Origin: a virus
Taxonomy: Duplodnaviria > Caudoviricetes
Strand: one strand, 5' to 3'
DNA length: 52,315 nt
Virus record (IMG/VR): IMGVR_UViG_3300042562_002373
Location: 1 to 52,315 of that record
How positions within the stretch are numbered: the stretch's first letter is position 1; each line of letters starts with the position of its first letter. Position numbers and translations under genes: made by a program. The notes beneath the pieces were generated by a model. It ran no database searches. It saw only the letters and a list, made by a program, of their open reading frames with translations, and was not told the DNA's origin. Of this stretch, positions 3,408 through 38,219 are shown piece after piece.

Positions 3408-4019
3408 TTACTTTTTTAATAGCATTATTGGGTTAACTTCCCACACTGATTCTTTTAAAGATTTTTTCTTCTTTTTAGTCTTAACACAATTGTTTACACG
3501 TTTACCAGTCTTATCTGATATTTTTGTACCTTCTTTATGATAACCAACCCAGCAAGATATTTCATCAATCATCTCTTCTTCATTAACATCGTCAGTTTCA
3601 GTTATCTCAACCATTAAATTACCAGTTCCTTTAATGACTCTATGATAAACATTTTTAGGTATTTCAATAGTTTCATTAATACTCATCTTTCTTGGTAACT
3701 CATTATCAAATTGAATCATCCAATCAGTTTCAGATAATAATTTAACTATTCTATCAGATTTATCTCTATGCCAAGTTAATTCATGCTCATCAACACTTTC
3801 AGAAAATGTTCTTCTAATGATATTATCAGTTCTTTCTTCAATATAAGGTTTCTCACCTTTAGCAGTCTGCGACTTTTTCCAAGCATCTAATGCTGGAAAA
3901 TTATAGGTATGTGTCTCACTATCGAACCCACATTTATGACATAGATATGGGTGAGCCTCTTGTTTAAGAGGCCACTCATGTCCACAGTTTTTACCTTCAC
4001 ATTTAAATTTTTCTTCCAT
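3408..4019 (-). CDS. Multidomain protein: Zn-ribbon + cupin-like domain + CWxGY..NCV motif
   Basis: CxxxxC..CxxC at N-terminus; WHRD...IPKNVYHRVIKG cupin-like His pattern; start moved to the ATG at 4019 (MEEKF), directly after the upstream stop. Confidence 0.65.
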   Translation of the reverse strand: MEEKFKCEGKNCGHEWPLKQEAHPYLCHKCGFDSETHTYNFPALDAWKKSQTAKGEKPYIEERTDNIIRRTFSESVDEHELTWHRDKSDRIVKLLSETDWMIQFDNELPRKMSINETIEIPKNVYHRVIKGTGNLMVEITETDDVNEEEMIDEISCWVGYHKEGTKISDKTGKRVNNCVKTKKKKKSLKESVWEVNPIMLLKK

Positions 4020-30479: not shown

Positions 30480-30516
30480 GTTGCGTAAATAAAAAATAAT
30501 AACTAGATTTGTAAAA
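30480..30516 (+). promoter_or_regulatory. Bacteroidota-type promoter, repeat copy 3
   Basis: gttgcgtaaataaaaaataataactagatttgtaaaa. Confidence 0.75.
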
Positions 30517-30538
30517 AATTAAAATAATAACTAAATTT

Positions 30539-31459
30539 ATGAGTATGAAGAAGCATTCGTTATCGACTAAAGGTTTATCCTTATCACAAGCACAATCAAT
30601 TTCAAATTTGTGCAATCAAAGAGCAACTGATATTGCTGCCGAGTTAAATGGTATCAACAACGTTGAGAAACAACTTAAAATAGGTGACCAAACTTATATT
30701 GAGACAGTTGGTAAACCAGTACCTAGTAATTTAACTGAGTTGCTTTTGGAGAAAGCTAAGTTGCATGCAACTCAAGCGTTCTTGATGGAAAACGTCAAAG
30801 CAAAAGATGTTTTAATTAGAGAAGCTCGTTATAGAGGTATGGAAACTTCTTTAGAGATGCCATCTAGACCTAAGTTAGCAGATTTCGACCCAATCGAGGA
30901 GGTTGGTGAAGATTTTGGTTGGGGTCAATTGACTTCAAACGAGATTAATGAGTACACTGAGGCTGAGGCTTATGCTGCTCACATTGGTCAATTCATTCAT
31001 AAGCATGGTCCATTGGATAATCTTAGAAAAGAATTACCATCAATCAAAACTTTAGAGTGGATTGAAGTTGAGCAAGGTAAGAAAACGCCTTTAATGGTAA
31101 CAATTCATCATACTAATGACCAATTGTTAGGTATTCATAATGAATTGGCTGCTAAACACCGTCAGTATGAACAGCGAGTAAATTATTTCAAAGCTAAAGT
31201 TAAGGATTTAACTACTGCTGAGAATGCTCGTATCGCTAGACATAATGCGGATGGATTTGCTAAAGTTAATTCTTCTAACGAAGTATTGAATAGCCAATAC
31301 CAAAAAGAGTACGCAGCATACCAAGCTGAATTAACTAAGTTGAGACAAGACCTTGAGTTCCAACGTCAAACTGAGATTGGTGAAATTTCTTCACTAAGAA
31401 TCAGTATTGACTCAAGATTTCAAGATGTAATTGATACTTATTTAGCTCAATTAAATTAA
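30539..31459 (+). CDS. Alpha-helical coiled-coil protein of unknown function, upstream of a structured RNA
   Basis: 306 aa, A/E/Q/L-rich heptads; N-terminal GLSLSQAQSISNLCNQ. Confidence 0.85.
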   Translation: MSMKKHSLSTKGLSLSQAQSISNLCNQRATDIAAELNGINNVEKQLKIGDQTYIETVGKPVPSNLTELLLEKAKLHATQAFLMENVKAKDVLIREARYRGMETSLEMPSRPKLADFDPIEEVGEDFGWGQLTSNEINEYTEAEAYAAHIGQFIHKHGPLDNLRKELPSIKTLEWIEVEQGKKTPLMVTIHHTNDQLLGIHNELAAKHRQYEQRVNYFKAKVKDLTTAENARIARHNADGFAKVNSSNEVLNSQYQKEYAAYQAELTKLRQDLEFQRQTEIGEISSLRISIDSRFQDVIDTYLAQLN

Positions 31460-31465
31460 TAAGGT

Positions 31466-31810
31466 TAATGGTGGTTAAACACAAGTTGATACCACCATTA
31501 TTTAAACTTGATAGAGTAGGATTAAACTTCTATATAAATATATTGTTAATATACATGACTAATTTGACTGCCACAAGCGGTCTAATTAAAATATAAAAGC
31601 CGCTCCGAAAGGAGCTTACTATATCCGCTCTTTCTACAAATTTATAAAAACTGAGCTTGTCTCTAATGGCTACACAAGTTAACCGAAAAGGTACAATTGG
31701 GTAGCGAAAACAAGACTTAGATTTTGACTTTGCCTTTGAGTAGAAGGAGGTCTTTGGTTTTAGTTTTAATTTTAACTTTAGCTATGTCCCTTCTTTATTA
31801 GGTTACTTAT
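31466..31810 (+). ncRNA. Candidate novel structured ncRNA with phased hexamer array
   Basis: No ORF; at least six stems found by eye, GAAA tetraloop, long-range pairings, UUURNN repeats, 3' U-tract. Confidence 0.7.
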
Positions 31811-31841
31811 TTTTTTTTTATTCTTTGCAAAGAAGAATGTA

Positions 31842-31914
31842 TGACATGTAGCTCAGTTGGAAGAGCACTACTATTTTAATGTAGAGGTCGGTAGTTCGAA
31901 TCTACTCATGTTAT
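31842..31914 (+). tRNA. tRNA-Lys(UUU), atypical
   Basis: Acceptor TGACATG/CATGTTA, D arm GCTC/GAGC, anticodon TTT at 31875-31877, T arm GGTAG-TTCGAAT-CTACT; U31-U39 mismatch, A32, no encoded CCA. Confidence 0.75.
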
Positions 31915-32010
31915 CAAAGGTGGGAGTAATTAGCCCAACCCTAACAAGAATGTCTATCATATAGCTTAAAGAGATTTGGTACCACTAATTTCTGATGATA
32001 ATTCTTGATT

Positions 32011-32086
32011 CTCTACTTATGGTGTAAATTGGTTTGCACATCGGCTGGTGCCGAAGGACTATGGGTTCGAGTCCCTTGGGTAGAGC
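32011..32086 (+). ncRNA. tRNA-like RNA with truncated anticodon arm (pseudo-tRNA or mimic)
   Basis: D arm GTGT/GCAC, GGG-TTCGAGT-CCC T arm, 9-bp acceptor-like stem, anticodon arm TCGGC-TGGT-GCCGA with only a 4-nt loop. Confidence 0.6.
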
Positions 32087-32088
32087 AA

Positions 32089-32297
32089 TGAGTAAGGGGT
32101 ACTCAGTAGTCTTTGACCTAAGACTTATTTAACAATAGGTTAGTGAAACTGCATACAACTGAGGTTGCAGTCTTTGGGATAATGGCCTATAACACGGTTA
32201 CCATAGTAGTTTGACTTTTTTCATAGGGGATGCCCAGCAGGTTTTTTGAATTAGGAAGAAACCGATGTAACTACTCACCAGTAATCTCAAGGTGGGG
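32089..32297 (+). ncRNA. Candidate structured ncRNA between tRNA-like genes
   Basis: GC-enriched, no ORF, consecutive stems (tgagta/tactca, agtctt/aagact, ataggtta/tggcctat, actgca/tgcagt, gttac/gtaac, ggtttt/gaaacc, ctcacc/ggtggg). Confidence 0.55.
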
Positions 32298-32303
32298 AAA
32301 CTT

Positions 32304-32377
32304 GGCCTCATAGCTTAATCGTATAAAGCAACGCACTTCTAATGCGTAGAGTGAAGGTTAGAATCCTTCTGAGGTCA
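32304..32377 (+). tRNA. tRNA-Arg(UCU)
   Basis: GGCCTCA/TGAGGTC acceptor, ACGCA-CTTCTAA-TGCGT anticodon arm, GAAGG-TTAGAAT-CCTTC T arm; no encoded CCA. Confidence 0.85.
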
Positions 32378-32440
32378 CTTTTTTTTAATTTAATCTTTAA
32401 AAAATTTGTTTATTGATTATATTATGTATATATTTGTACC

Positions 32441-32644
32441 ATGTTTAACTTAAATAATAAAAATATGACAACAATTATGCCAGAAGAAATTCAAACATCA
32501 CCGATTAATAATTCAATTAATAACATGGATATGGTCGCATGGTGGACTAAAAACGGAGACGGAAATTTTAATTGGGTATTATACCATCAAATTATTCAAG
32601 CCAAAAGATTCTTAATTGAGAATCACTCCGATATGGAAAAATAA
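32441..32644 (+). CDS. Hypothetical protein
   Basis: Follows TATATTTG box at 32429-32436; true start may be the second Met. Confidence 0.6.
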   Translation: MFNLNNKNMTTIMPEEIQTSPINNSINNMDMVAWWTKNGDGNFNWVLYHQIIQAKRFLIENHSDMEK

Positions 32645-35564: not shown

Positions 35565-35658
35565 AAAATCTTTTTTATTAATAAATATCGATTTTTTAGT
35601 AAAAAAGTTTGCATTAACCGAATTAAAATACCTATATTTGTCAAAAGAAATTATACAT

Positions 35659-36510
35659 ATGAGAGCAGTTATTAATTTAGACGAAAACTTTAAACCATTT
35701 GGTAAAGAATTTACCGAGTTGGAATACCAGAAGTTTAGTTTCCCAAGTGGTTGCGAACCACACATTAAAATTATTGAAAAGAATTGGATGATAGGTGGTA
35801 ATGAAGTTATTATTACGACTAGAATTAAATCTTCAGAAGATTTGATGATTTTATTATTAGCTACCGATGCTTTAAAACGATTAGGGTTTACATATATTAA
35901 ACTATTTATTCCTTACCTACCGTTTGCTAGACAAGACCGCGTTATGGTTGGTGGTGAACCTTTATCAATTAAAGTTTTAGCAAACATTATTAATTCACAA
36001 GAATATAGTAAAGTTGCGGTATATGACGTACACTCTGAAGTGTCTTTAGCGTTAATTAATAATTGTGACCCAGTTAGTAATCATAACATTGTTAAACAAA
36101 TCTTAGCTGATAAGAAAGATTACTACATTGTATCACCAGATGCTGGCGCATATAAGAAAATCTTCAAAGCTGCACAATTCGTTGGTTATACAGATGCTAT
36201 CGTATTATGTAATAAAATCAGAGATGTAAAAACTGGTCAAATCTTAAATATGACTTGTGATGTAAATGATTTACATGGTAAAGATGTTTATATCATTGAT
36301 GATATTTGTGATGGTGGTGGTACATTCATTGGTTTAGCTGATAAACTTAAAGAGAATAATGCTGGTAACGTTAATTTAATTGTATCACATGGTATTTTCT
36401 CTAAAGGTATTGAGGCCTTACATAATATTGACCACATATACACTACTGACTCATTCCAAGACTTGGAACCAAATAATAAGTTAACTCAAATTAAATTAGA
36501 ATTCAAATAA
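35659..36510 (+). CDS. prs: PRPP synthetase-like protein (probable Adps of NARP1)
   Basis: FPSGCEPHIKI, PYLPFARQDRV, DVHS, VSPDAGAYKK, IIDDICDGGGTF, VSHGIFS; start moved to MRAVIN after TATATTTG box. Confidence 0.9.
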   Translation: MRAVINLDENFKPFGKEFTELEYQKFSFPSGCEPHIKIIEKNWMIGGNEVIITTRIKSSEDLMILLLATDALKRLGFTYIKLFIPYLPFARQDRVMVGGEPLSIKVLANIINSQEYSKVAVYDVHSEVSLALINNCDPVSNHNIVKQILADKKDYYIVSPDAGAYKKIFKAAQFVGYTDAIVLCNKIRDVKTGQILNMTCDVNDLHGKDVYIIDDICDGGGTFIGLADKLKENNAGNVNLIVSHGIFSKGIEALHNIDHIYTTDSFQDLEPNNKLTQIKLEFK

Positions 36511-36521
36511 AAACAAATAAT

Positions 36522-38219
36522 ATGAATAGTTACAGACAAAATCCGCTATTGATGACTGATGGTTATAAAACCAGTCACCATGCGATGTATCCAGAGGGTA
36601 CGACTGAGGTATATTCGAATTACACATTAAGAAATGTGAAGTATATGCCTAAACAAGCTAAAAAAATTGTAGTTGCTGGTGTGCAATATACAGTTAAGTC
36701 AATCCATGACATGTATGCTAATGATTTCTTTGCTAGACCTAAAGCTAAAGTTTGTGGTGAAGCTAAAGAATACTTATCATCGTATTTAGGAACTGACTAT
36801 GATGTATCTCACTTTGAAGCATTACACGATTTAGGTTACTTACCTATTGAGATTAAAGCATTAGACGAAGGAACTATCATTGATGAGAAAATCCCAGTAT
36901 TTACAATTAAGAATACTCATCCAGATTTCTTTTGGTTACCTAATTTCTTAGAAACATTGATTTCTTCTTTGATTTGGAAACCAGTTCATTCAGCTTCATT
37001 AGCTTATGGTTATAAAAACCTTTTATTATCACATGCTAGAAAAACTGATAAAGAAAATTTAGGATTTGTTGATTTCCAAGGACATGATTTCTCATTCAGA
37101 GGAATGCAACACCCAGAGTCAGCAATTAGTTCTGGTCTAGGTTTCTTAACTTCATTCTCTGGTACTGATACAATTCCAGCATTATTAGCTGCGAACTATT
37201 ACTACGGAACTAAGAATGTAGGTTTCAGTGTTCCAGCTTCTGAACATGCTGTTATGACTGCATACGGTAAAGAAGATGAGATTGGTGCTTTCAGAAGATT
37301 GATGCAACAATACCCAACTGGTATCTTATCAGTAGTATCTGATTCATTTGACTTATGGAAAGTATGTACTGAATACATTACTGAACTTAAAGAAGAAATT
37401 CTTTCTCGTGATGGTAAATTAGTATTACGCCCAGATTCTGGTGACCCAGTTGATATCTTATGTGGTTCAGTTAGTTTAAACTATACTTCATTAGACCAAG
37501 CTAAACATGATTTTAAAAATGAGTTATATGAGTCTACAGTTCATGGTGAAGATGAATACACTATCGATACAACTCGTATTGTTAATGTTAATGGTACATA
37601 TTACAAATTAACTGAAGACACTACTTGGAATCGTTATGATAAACAATATTATTATGTTGACGAATTATATATCGATGCTGAAGAAGTTGAATCTAAACCA
37701 GAATATGTTGGTGTAATCGAATTGTTATGGAATACATTTGGTGGTACTACTAATGGTCAAGGTTACAAATTATTAGATTCTCATATCGGTGCAATCTATG
37801 GTGATTCAATTACATTAGATAGAGCTGATGCTATTTGTACTAGATTAGCTGCAAAAGGTTTCGCATCTACTAACGTAGTATTAGGTATTGGTTCTTACTC
37901 TATGGGTTATGCGACAAGAGATAACCAAGGTGGTGCAGTTAAAGCTACTCACGTAGTAGTTAATGGTGTTGATAGAGATATCTTCAAAGACCCAGTAACT
38001 GATGATGGGACCAAAAAATCAGCAAGAGGTTACTTATATGTTTACGCTAAAGATAGTTTAACATATGCTCTTAAAGATAAATGTTCTCGTGATTTAGAGG
38101 AAAATGGTTTATTAACTACTGTTTACAAAAATGGTGACTTAGTTAAAACTACGACTCTGACTGAGATTAGAGAAAAAATAAATAATTATTCAAAATTAGT
38201 TCAAGAAACTGTTGCGTAA
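36522..38219 (+). CDS. nadV: Nicotinamide phosphoribosyltransferase-like protein (probable Namat of NARP1)
   Basis: TDGYKTSH, HDFSFRG, VPASEHAVM, SVVSDSFD, LRPDSGDP, IYGDSIT, KDPVTDDGTKKSARG. Confidence 0.92.
   Translation: MNSYRQNPLLMTDGYKTSHHAMYPEGTTEVYSNYTLRNVKYMPKQAKKIVVAGVQYTVKSIHDMYANDFFARPKAKVCGEAKEYLSSYLGTDYDVSHFEALHDLGYLPIEIKALDEGTIIDEKIPVFTIKNTHPDFFWLPNFLETLISSLIWKPVHSASLAYGYKNLLLSHARKTDKENLGFVDFQGHDFSFRGMQHPESAISSGLGFLTSFSGTDTIPALLAANYYYGTKNVGFSVPASEHAVMTAYGKEDEIGAFRRLMQQYPTGILSVVSDSFDLWKVCTEYITELKEEILSRDGKLVLRPDSGDPVDILCGSVSLNYTSLDQAKHDFKNELYESTVHGEDEYTIDTTRIVNVNGTYYKLTEDTTWNRYDKQYYYVDELYIDAEEVESKPEYVGVIELLWNTFGGTTNGQGYKLLDSHIGAIYGDSITLDRADAICTRLAAKGFASTNVVLGIGSYSMGYATRDNQGGAVKATHVVVNGVDRDIFKDPVTDDGTKKSARGYLYVYAKDSLTYALKDKCSRDLEENGLLTTVYKNGDLVKTTTLTEIREKINNYSKLVQETVA

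Follow-up and report, generated by a model that had tools for sequence, protein, structure and literature searches.

What follows the 306-amino-acid (aa) gene at positions 30539 to 31459 (+ strand) of the IMG/VR virus record IMGVR_UViG_3300042562_002373 (Duplodnaviria; Caudoviricetes), and what could a phage gain from 382 nt there without a credible open reading frame (ORF)? The window, here the whole stretch of 52,315 nt that was analysed, is a 52-kb virus fragment of ~30% G+C, and the ORF-free region lies directly after the gene, as an initial annotation made from the letters alone had stated, and reaches to a tRNA-Lys gene at 31842. That annotation had proposed a folded RNA displaying phased UUURNN hexamers, which might present sites to an oligomeric protein, the upstream gene's product, or serve as a template or antitoxin. 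Comparative analysis confirms that positions 31461 to 31808 (+) are a real structured RNA. Further, the gene and the RNA may together form one two-part phage ribonucleoprotein, whose arrays of UUG-core hexamers would set the register in which an oligomeric protein binds; the gene's own product is the likeliest candidate. This leading interpretation is tentative, at somewhat less than even confidence.

The evidence for the RNA comes from its folding and from its relatives. The + strand of the ORF-free stretch folds to -90.7 kcal/mol (z = -4.20; 0 of 100 shuffles equal), and the - strand reaches z = -2.89 (1 of 100 shuffles equal). The DNA after the gene is conserved in relatives, often beyond what protein similarity predicts, and the helices were recovered by mutual information, with no energy model, from 93 distinct instances of the element with lengths from 297 to 394 nt (median 314); one instance, L178, is probably a spurious motif match and stands outside the alignments used for pairing counts. 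Across 61 sequences, 90.9% of the cells of helices P0, P1 and P2 are paired, compared to 66.4% in column shuffles and 41 to 50% with slid partners, and 513 cells have double changes, compared to 164 in shuffles. Across 71 sequences, the cells of helices P3, P4 and P5 are 96.0% paired (87.1% in shuffles, 33 to 53% with slid partners), with 165 double-change cells versus 35. Moreover, G-U cells outnumber A-C cells by 166:34 and 223:21 in these two sets, an excess indicating that the folded strand is the + strand, the gene's own, as the G-U pairs of the window had first suggested.

The architecture is common to the family: P0 joins the first and last bases, followed by an invariant GGU, P1, P2, a variable region, a CCGC motif and P3, with P4 and P5 inside P3. 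In the window, where all of these parts are on the + strand and the RNA begins 2 nt past the stop codon, the 5′ strand of P0 (AAG.U, 31461-31465) pairs with 31805-31808 (97.5% paired; 2 of 4 pairs changed on both sides). The P1 hairpin (31466-31500) has a stem at 31466-74/31492-500, an inner 2-bp stem at 31479-80/31485-86 and a conserved apical loop, with both-side changes in 8/8 stem pairs and 2/2 inner pairs; family-wide, it measures 9 to 10 bp with a conserved 15-nt apical part. P2 is a long-range closing helix (31505-31520 with 31789-31804; 13 to 16 bp in the family), 91.1% paired, in which all 16 pairs have changed on both sides, and its 3′ strand continues into that of P0 to fill 31789-31808. 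The variable region (31521-31624) holds lineage-specific hairpins and corresponds to alignment columns 65 to 200, which are mostly gaps and dissimilar between lineages. After it, the conserved CCGC and the 5′ strand of P3 (31628-36) occupy 31625-31636, and the purine-rich 3′ strand of P3 lies at 31741-31749; eight of its 9 pairs, the family's number, have changed on both sides, and 99.1% of its cells are paired. P4 (31651-31720, pairing 31651-55/31716-20 and 31662-64/31712-14) is mostly invariant and hardly varies, so that conservation is what speaks for it, while P5 inside it (31669-73/31701-05 and 31675-80/31695-700) has both-side changes in 6 of 10 pairs.

Most of the pairings noticed in the initial annotation are therefore those of the family: taatggtggt/accaccatta is P1, the G-U-rich closing stem is P2 and ctctttctac/gtagaaggag is P3, all conserved and covarying in the 61 to 71 relatives whose downstream DNA was compared, and ctgag.../...cttag and gctac/gtagc are the conserved P4 and P5. 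Other details are more local. The hairpins gactgc...gcggtc and gctcc-GAAA-ggagc hold for the window's near kin, and elsewhere the variable region carries other hairpins; ACAAG recurs four times, but as a conserved motif only in the P1 loop; the consensus differs at the other three copies. The U tract after the closing stem, a lineage-specific U10 at 31810-31819 (+) in the window, is not general, as a T-run of at least 5 follows P2 in 23 of 93 instances. Two additional structures were considered and dropped: a kink-turn in P4, since a covarying pair at columns 61-144 favours ordinary pairing, and an AUAG/CUAU pseudoknot, which is complementary yet invariant and lost in the window's lineage.

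Within this scaffold, the hexamers form two arrays of fixed length. Array A (31723-31740, +) lies within the P3-closed loop and comprises TTTGAC TTTGCC TTTGAG, three hexamers in phase, with 1.3 to 2.0 bits in its UUUG columns. Array B proper (31753-31788) consists of the six in-phase hexamers TTTGGT TTTAGT TTTAAT TTTAAC TTTAGC TATGTC and, together with its GGTC lead-in, spans 31749-31788 (+), where GGTCTTTG is invariant or nearly so in 71 main-clade sequences; the lead-in makes the array open with GGUCUUUG, equally conserved in the same set. Within the hexamers, the middle U and the G are the best-kept positions and the two bases before the U's are free. Neither array contains an insertion or deletion in these 71 sequences, whose proteins are about 45 to 90% identical, and the main-clade lengths are fixed at 3 + 6 hexamers. 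Five successive TTTRNN units are found at a single place in the 52-kb window (31753-31780) and in none of 100 shuffles. Between the arrays, the spacer, which is the 3′ strand of P3, measures 12 nt in the window and 12 to 14 nt in relatives; consequently, the register is kept within each array and not across both. The single 6-nt register that had been read across the 12-nt gap thus holds within the arrays, where phasing is conserved in relatives and survives the deepest divergence, and its continuation over exactly 12 nt belongs to the window's lineage. Two other roles for the arrays were tried and rejected. Pairing of array A with the A-rich strand as a defined structure has several possible registers and no covariation. 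A trans target recognised through a CAAA-period-6 complement has 7 matches in the window at up to 3 mismatches, compared to 3.3 expected, and the best match outside the arrays is in the gene's conserved SQAQS codons, which vary synonymously like ordinary coding sequence.

The RNA and the gene are genetically tied. A protein search of IMG/VR returned 95 relatives, and among the best 80 of these 95 (46 to 90% identity, on contigs up to 365 kb) a profile search with nhmmer places the RNA's 3′ domain downstream on the same strand in 77, so that homologous genes have the similar downstream sequence rather than lacking it; the contigs of the other 3 end before the RNA could appear. A protein-blind, exact-pattern scan of IMG/VR for the RNA motif found at least 118 loci. 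In 97 of the 118 listed, the gene precedes the motif directly and in the same orientation, and 211 to 764 nt separate the end of the protein match from the motif; a further 7 loci have less than 700 nt of upstream room, and 14 have room but no tblastn match. These 14 comprise four unrelated 36-nt tandem repeats, eight loci without a profile match, the probable chance match L178 and a distant homologue, L196; the 13 loci besides L196 appear unrelated. All 5 carrier genomes searched, of which 4 are complete (320 to 365 kb), have one copy of the gene; the RNA motif occurs once in 4 of the 5, the fifth having a variant spelling. Besides the RNA, the gene has no constant neighbour; the most widespread are two small unannotated ORFs in 20 or 21 of ~76 loci. 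Overall, the linkage is strict and ancient.

Its age is best seen in a second clade. The distant homologue L196 has a 294-aa ORF that matches the family by hhalign with a probability of 97.8% (E = 7.9e-13, 264 columns, 21% identity) and belongs to a clade of 579 proteins, beside the 2503 homologues of the main clade at E<=1e-5. Its RNA is G+C-richer; by eye, the closing helix begins right past the stop codon, and UUUG hexamers form a run on either side of one strand of a perfect 10-bp helix. An alignment of 47 of the 579 proteins served to fetch 80 more loci, giving 71 distinct downstream regions. Of these 71, 27 carry a run of at least four in-phase hexamers ending in Y-U-R after the gene, compared to 1/71 in ORF sequence and 13/1420 in shuffles, and 49 carry a run of at least three, compared to 16/71 and 316/1420; this scoring is strict and misses arrays with A-containing units, such as that of L209. 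Further, the spacer before the longest run pairs upstream over at least 10 contiguous bp in 24 of 48 regions, compared to 44 of 480 shuffled spacers. The core in this clade is UUG, often CUUG or AUUG. To judge from these comparisons, period-6 UUG arrays flanking a predicted helix strand are kept downstream of the gene across ~80% protein divergence.

For example, the second-clade RNA lies between the homologous gene and the next gene in PQ006092.1 (L200), a complete, named phage genome from rodent faeces. The region of this putative RNA is ~87,990-88,255 on the minus strand (3383-3640 of L200), with arrays at 3550-3562 and 3576-3611 and a 10-bp helix at 3499-3508/3565-3574 found by eye. A coding sequence for a 58-aa 'hypothetical protein', XHH63432.1, is drawn across it and is probably a mis-call.

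The carriers range from fragments of a few kb to complete jumbo phage genomes of 320 to 365 kb, and their recorded habitats are lake water and animal faeces. Of 50,697 phage records searched by tblastn with two family members, PQ006092.1 and an unannotated fragment from faeces alone gave matches, and blastn of the RNA gave nothing real. Among 185,579 species genomes there are six matches (L201-L206), all on contigs of metagenome-assembled genomes whose taxon labels are mutually inconsistent (Omnitrophota, Paceibacterota, Gammaproteobacteria and 'bacterium'); they are therefore read as mis-binned phage contigs, from which no host can be taken. One of the six and the IMG/VR virus L125, a locus of the motif scan, are both 362,763 bp long.

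Lake-water DNA runs contain the stretch, and six metatranscriptome runs contain parts of it. In four RNA runs, each from a different study, contigs extend over the ORF as well as the RNA; one metatranscriptome contig (30998-31536) spans the stop codon. The word depth is higher on the RNA side than on the ORF side in X19 (41-61 versus 5-17) and X20 (7.6 versus 2-5), marginally so in X23, and reversed in X22. Contig depth cannot rank the parts of a gene, and the RNA, being better conserved than the ORF, collects more collapsed strains. No transcript ends or levels are drawn from these contigs, which break at 31507 and 31536, where strains vary. Co-transcription of gene and RNA is plausible, given that P0 starts 2 nt past the stop codon and that one contig bridges the two.

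The protein partner is as isolated as the RNA. Among the 120 listed of the 2503 homologues, none has a Pfam domain, and those with a name in their source are called 'hypothetical protein', except one labelled 'Skp family chaperone' by the Joint Genome Institute. A confident AlphaFold2 (AF2) model built with 60 sequences (predicted local distance difference test, pLDDT, 89.0; predicted template modelling score, pTM, 0.81) has two units of helix, beta-hairpin and long helix, followed by C-terminal helices, and both clades conserve a KAK-containing helix, an IGxxIH motif and an HR...N motif. Searches of Pfam, PHROGs and PADLOC with the window's protein or 60 aligned members gave coiled-coil noise alone; over the 60 members, PADLOC matches were scattered and weak (any model in 6/60 at most, best E 0.001). 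The OmpH model matches 3 of 60 members weakly (best E 0.0056), and no prefoldin or Skp row is among the Foldseek or VIA matches listed. A sequence-profile search of the PDB gave nothing better than E 0.4, Foldseek against the PDB reached E 0.051 with a TM of 0.17, and Foldseek against BFVD found an uncharacterised homologue only. The best Z of a wide VIA-align search, 6.8, is inside the noise range of helical proteins, the ESM Atlas yielded no usable match, and the score for an internal sequence repeat was 27, compared to a shuffle mean of 27.9. A two-copy complex prediction scored 0.40 against a mark of 0.42 and is not used as evidence either way.

How might such a pair work? According to the proposed mechanism, the RNA would be transcribed on the gene's strand, mostly as a direct 3′ continuation of the gene's mRNA, and would fold into a closed scaffold whose ends are tied by P0 and P2, with P1 as a hairpin and P3 to P5 as an inner domain. 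The scaffold would display two fixed-length runs of UUG-core hexamers, on either side of the 3′ strand of P3. A short core at a fixed period, as in the RNAs read by TRAP and HutP, is found here as UUG with a period of 6, in two blocks and in two clades, and single-strandedness is predicted. A partner reading the RNA in register is suggested by three features: the arrays have a fixed length within a clade, advance in six-base steps and outlast the helix sequences. We infer that the arrays are single-stranded and that a protein, the neighbour's product, binds them; since the presence of the adjacent gene's product co-varies with that of the RNA over the whole tree, a ribonucleoprotein with this product is ranked first. 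The product would be loaded in cis during its synthesis. The runs would then act as a ruler, each hexamer being one landing site, so that a protein oligomer of defined size is built in a six-nucleotide register and the partner's geometry sets the number of sites. A further step, in which the two fixed UUG runs (3 + 6 in the lake clade) would nucleate a defined oligomer and set the size and geometry of an assembly of a protein with a novel fold, is possible though rather doubtful.

Several observations weigh against the two-part ribonucleoprotein. The protein is acidic (median isoelectric point 5.97 and median net charge -6 in 60 sequences), Pfam scans recognise no RNA-binding domain in it, and RVNYFKAKVK is the only basic conserved stretch standing out. 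Array A faces an A-rich strand and may be partly paired, and the repeat number is unlike between the clades, at about 3+6 versus about 2-3+3-6. Moreover, an extra ORF of 468 or 177 aa stands between gene and RNA in 3 of 77 loci (L056 and L078/L079, the downstream regions of the latter two being identical); immediate adjacency, and hence loading in cis, is therefore not obligatory. Finally, the RNA-library contigs were assembled from mixed strains and give no ends, strand or level, and DNA carry-over is possible.

The protein's acidity fits some other molecule as the array binder, and the RNA might instead attract, as a decoy or a recruiter, an abundant host protein that binds single-stranded RNA and covers ~6-7 nt per domain, with the phage protein working alongside and not on the arrays. 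A cold-shock-domain (CSD) protein is the most concrete candidate, and ribosomal protein S1 and RNase E/G are others. The near-invariant GGUCUUUG that heads array B contains the consensus heptamer of Bacillus subtilis CspB, 5′-GTCTTTG/T-3′, a seven-base site for which the portion of PMC1904285 used here gives a preference for T at positions 2, 4 and 6 and for C at 3. The two variable positions before each UUU are pyrimidine-rich, matching the place of that C. According to the consulted sections of PMC13370968, Bacteroides has a canonical cold-shock protein, and as a search control the CSD models match B. thetaiotaomicron. However, the CspB match was noticed post hoc and concerns a Bacillus protein on DNA oligonucleotides, and the lead hexamers of the second clade are nearer to GUUCUUG, leaving UUG alone as universal. 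None of the 5 carrier phages searched encodes a CSD protein. Further, the arrays have no indels in 71 sequences, whereas the decoys CsrB and RsmZ vary in repeat number, and a host-factor decoy leaves the strict linkage to one gene unexplained. Overall, a host factor is an unlikely occupant of the arrays. Another Bacteroides protein, RbpB, was rejected as a binder: the motif that was tested, GUAGGAUA, as given in the part of bioRxiv 10.1101/2021.04.27.441718 drawn on, is unlike the arrays, and the text of its crosslinking and immunoprecipitation (CLIP) study, in the passages covered (PMC11697453), holds no short motif.

The position of the RNA suggests a second alternative, a cis-acting 3′ untranslated region that protects the gene's own mRNA from 3′ exonucleases, terminates it or regulates it, with no separate particle. 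The RNA begins 2 nt past the stop codon, always lies downstream on the gene's strand, has its ends tied by a 16-bp helix that is followed by U10 in the window, and is joined to the gene in one RNA-library contig. Yet a multi-helix domain of 300-390 nt with invariant repeats exceeds what a stabiliser or terminator needs, and in L056 and L078/L079 a whole ORF intervenes with the RNA still intact. The U tract also recurs too seldom. In particular, an intrinsic terminator, as P2/P0 and U10 might form in the window, was rejected for the family, since no more than 23 of 93 instances have a T-run of at least 5 in the 24 nt that follow P2. A role confined to the gene's own message is thus improbable as well.

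Less probable still is an RNA-only machine in the manner of GOLLD or ROOL, perhaps a homo-oligomer, in which the arrays would make tertiary or inter-molecular contacts and the gene would be a functional associate. The RNA is large, has many helices with strong covariation, and occurs in phages, sometimes by tRNA genes (7 of 79 downstream regions); GOLLD, ROOL and OLE set the precedent of RNA-only homo-oligomers, as described in the section of PMC12286853 consulted. In addition, the invariant CUAU after array B complements a conserved AUAG in the internal loop of P4. This complementarity does not covary, however, and is lost in the window's own lineage, the Rfam models of GOLLD, ROOL and OLE do not match, and contacts among RNAs leave unexplained why the UUG period outlives all helix sequences across the clades.

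The arrays could also act as DNA, being TTTG promoter-like boxes or sites for a DNA-binding protein, which is very improbable. TTTG is what we take to be the core of Bacteroidota promoter elements, and a TAnnTTTG box is enriched before the gene (19/60 loci versus 2.35 expected); however, the arrays are embedded among covarying helices with a strong bias of G-U over A-C, the consensus has no TAnnTTTG box at promoter spacing after the arrays, the second-clade core is UUG/CUUG and not TTTG, and the downstream genes vary from locus to locus. The weakest alternative, that array B codes a short amphipathic peptide of alternating x-hydrophobic-x-hydrophobic residues, is scarcely credible: one frame over the array's 48 nt is stop-free in 87 of 91 sequences, against stops in 51 to 87 of 91 in the other five frames, and the middle U is best kept, as a second codon position would be, but the UUU-R-N-N pattern opens that frame automatically, reading of the window and L057 by eye places it directly after a stop codon with no ATG, GTG or TTG at its head, it does not continue across the 12-14-nt spacer from one array to the other, L039 has an in-frame TGA, and the longest complete ORFs in the RNA have a median of 37 aa, reaching at least 60 aa in 9 of 93 instances with varying strands and positions.

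The tRNA-Lys gene at 31842-31915 is followed by a 388-base gap and a tRNA-Arg gene at 32304-32378, and tRNAs lie within 900 nt downstream in 7 of 79 regions, the window included. By PHROG and Pfam names, the genes around the module are auxiliary (endolysins, a phosphoesterase, a SLOG-family protein, a glycosyltransferase, helicases, a phosphoribosyl pyrophosphate (PRPP) synthetase, a nicotinamide phosphoribosyltransferase and a thymidylate synthase), with no virion genes in these surroundings. In particular, 35638-38219 holds adjoining genes for ribose-phosphate pyrophosphokinase and nicotinamide phosphoribosyltransferase (PHROG E 3e-81 and 5.7e-180), a pair that we take to be a phage salvage route for nicotinamide adenine dinucleotide (NAD+), linked to countering NAD-depleting defences. 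The gap between the tRNAs (31916-32303) contains a tRNA-like piece, chiefly at 32012-32086, whose T-arm, GGGTTCGAGTCCC at 32063-32075, is good; ARAGORN reports the piece at relaxed thresholds only, with a four-base anticodon (cggc), and default ARAGORN and Rfam are silent. The folding of this gap as a whole is unremarkable (z -1.17).

Upstream, a promoter-like TAGATTTG (TAnnTTTG) lies at 30504-30511 (+), 35 nt before the ATG. Among 60 distinct homologous loci, 19 have TAnnTTTG within 90 nt upstream of the gene, compared to 2.35 +/- 1.5 in shuffles. The element is presumably the Bacteroidota -7 promoter element, and its enrichment is a lead to the host, not a host assignment. The box is held by the first of two copies of an imperfect direct repeat, AAAATAATAACTA(G/A)ATTT, located just before the gene at 30493-30538. 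In one sub-lineage (L052, L053, L063, L065-L067 and L071), a common 20-nt element, ACAACTGAGTGCAGAGGGG, replaces TAnnTTTG in the 90 nt upstream of the gene, and other loci have GTCCTGAG followed by a hairpin at the same place; both are possibly lineage-specific regulatory or terminator elements. Between gene and RNA, the 468-aa protein inserted at 4014-5420 of L056, in one lake phage, consists of ~20 tandem units of the TYDE(R/K)GN type, and L078/L079 have a different, 177-aa insert at the same insertion place.

On comparative evidence, the RNA and its gene are rated as a putative new kind of element, common and old: neither partner has a known relative, and they span clades of 2503 and 579 proteins that are ~21% identical. 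A single-copy module kept over such a span likely serves a basic step of infection. If the ruler interpretation is true, an RNA would template protein assembly with a six-nucleotide step inside large double-stranded DNA phages, from lake water and in one faecal record; to our knowledge, such assembly has so far been known from RNA-virus nucleocapsids. As far as we know, large structured RNAs without a known function are seldom found, and new biochemistry has come from every one that has been solved. The present case is tractable, offering within a 1.3-kb module a candidate protein as partner and a repeat code that is both simple and mutable, in a region that is at present unannotated or, as in PQ006092.1, mis-annotated.

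The RNA does not belong to a described family in the collections searched, in agreement with the initial annotation. At gathering thresholds, Rfam 15 finds the two tRNAs only in the whole window. Over 31300-32500 at E<=10 there are 9 matches, and those that overlap the RNA are all far below gathering: CRISPR-DR40 (20.9 versus 42 bits), Prevotella-2 (19.1 versus 72.1 bits, minus strand), mir-16, HIV-1_SL3 and DUF805b. The models of GOLLD, ROOL and OLE do not match at E<=10, and ARAGORN finds no tmRNA in the window or the 79 downstream regions; the Rfam tmRNA models are silent in the window too. The two other functions that had been suggested at the outset are not supported. A template is not indicated by the neighbours, as PHROG and Pfam names include no reverse transcriptase or polymerase within 5 kb on either side, and a type III antitoxin is disfavoured by a repeat unit of 6 nt rather than ~36 nt, by the position of the RNA after the gene, and by the protein, which no PADLOC model fits. 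No description of this RNA was found in full-text literature. An IMG/VR survey lists 8495 candidate structured motifs of 29 to 151 nt, according to the main-text portion of PMC10690425, whose supplementary motif tables were not compared; pieces such as P1 may be among them.

Among large structured RNAs, OLE with its protein OapA is comparable in being a large, highly conserved RNA without a known biochemical role that is tied to an adjacent gene and works as a ribonucleoprotein (PMC12054373 and PMC12286853, in the parts consulted); in contrast, OLE is ~600 nt long, occurs in Bacillota cells, has a membrane-protein partner and no hexamer arrays, and matches the present RNA neither by sequence nor by model. 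GOLLD and ROOL, which like OLE form RNA-only homo-oligomers according to the same portion of PMC12286853, are likewise large, ornate RNAs, common in phages and prophages and often located by tRNA genes. Their ~580-800 nt and the lack of an obligatory protein neighbour set them apart, and the resemblance is of kind only.

The closest parallels to the arrays themselves are found in smaller systems. In Bacillus, the oligomeric rings of TRAP on the trp leader and of HutP on hut mRNA read G/UAG triplets spaced by 2-4 nt, in the case of HutP as two blocks of three. The present RNA similarly offers a UUG core each 6 nt in two blocks, but TRAP and HutP act through small beta-rich subunits on short 5′ leaders that switch a terminator, whereas here the repeats are part of a 300-390-nt scaffold after the gene, the candidate protein is helical and 306 aa long, and there is no evident terminator switch. 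The CsrB and RsmZ sponges also repeat a short motif many times, by which they titrate a protein; theirs is GGA in hairpin loops and varies in number, in contrast to contiguous, phased runs of fixed length. The ToxI RNAs of type III antitoxins are repetitive and encoded beside a protein gene as well, yet their repeats of ~36 nt lie upstream of the toxin that cuts them, and the 6-nt units here lie downstream. In kind, the proposed register resembles the nucleoproteins that obey the rule of six and the assembly origin of TMV, where a protein polymer measures RNA at 6 or 3 nt per subunit; those polymers coat whole RNA-virus genomes, whereas the arrays described here would offer 18 + 36 nt within a non-coding RNA of a double-stranded DNA phage.

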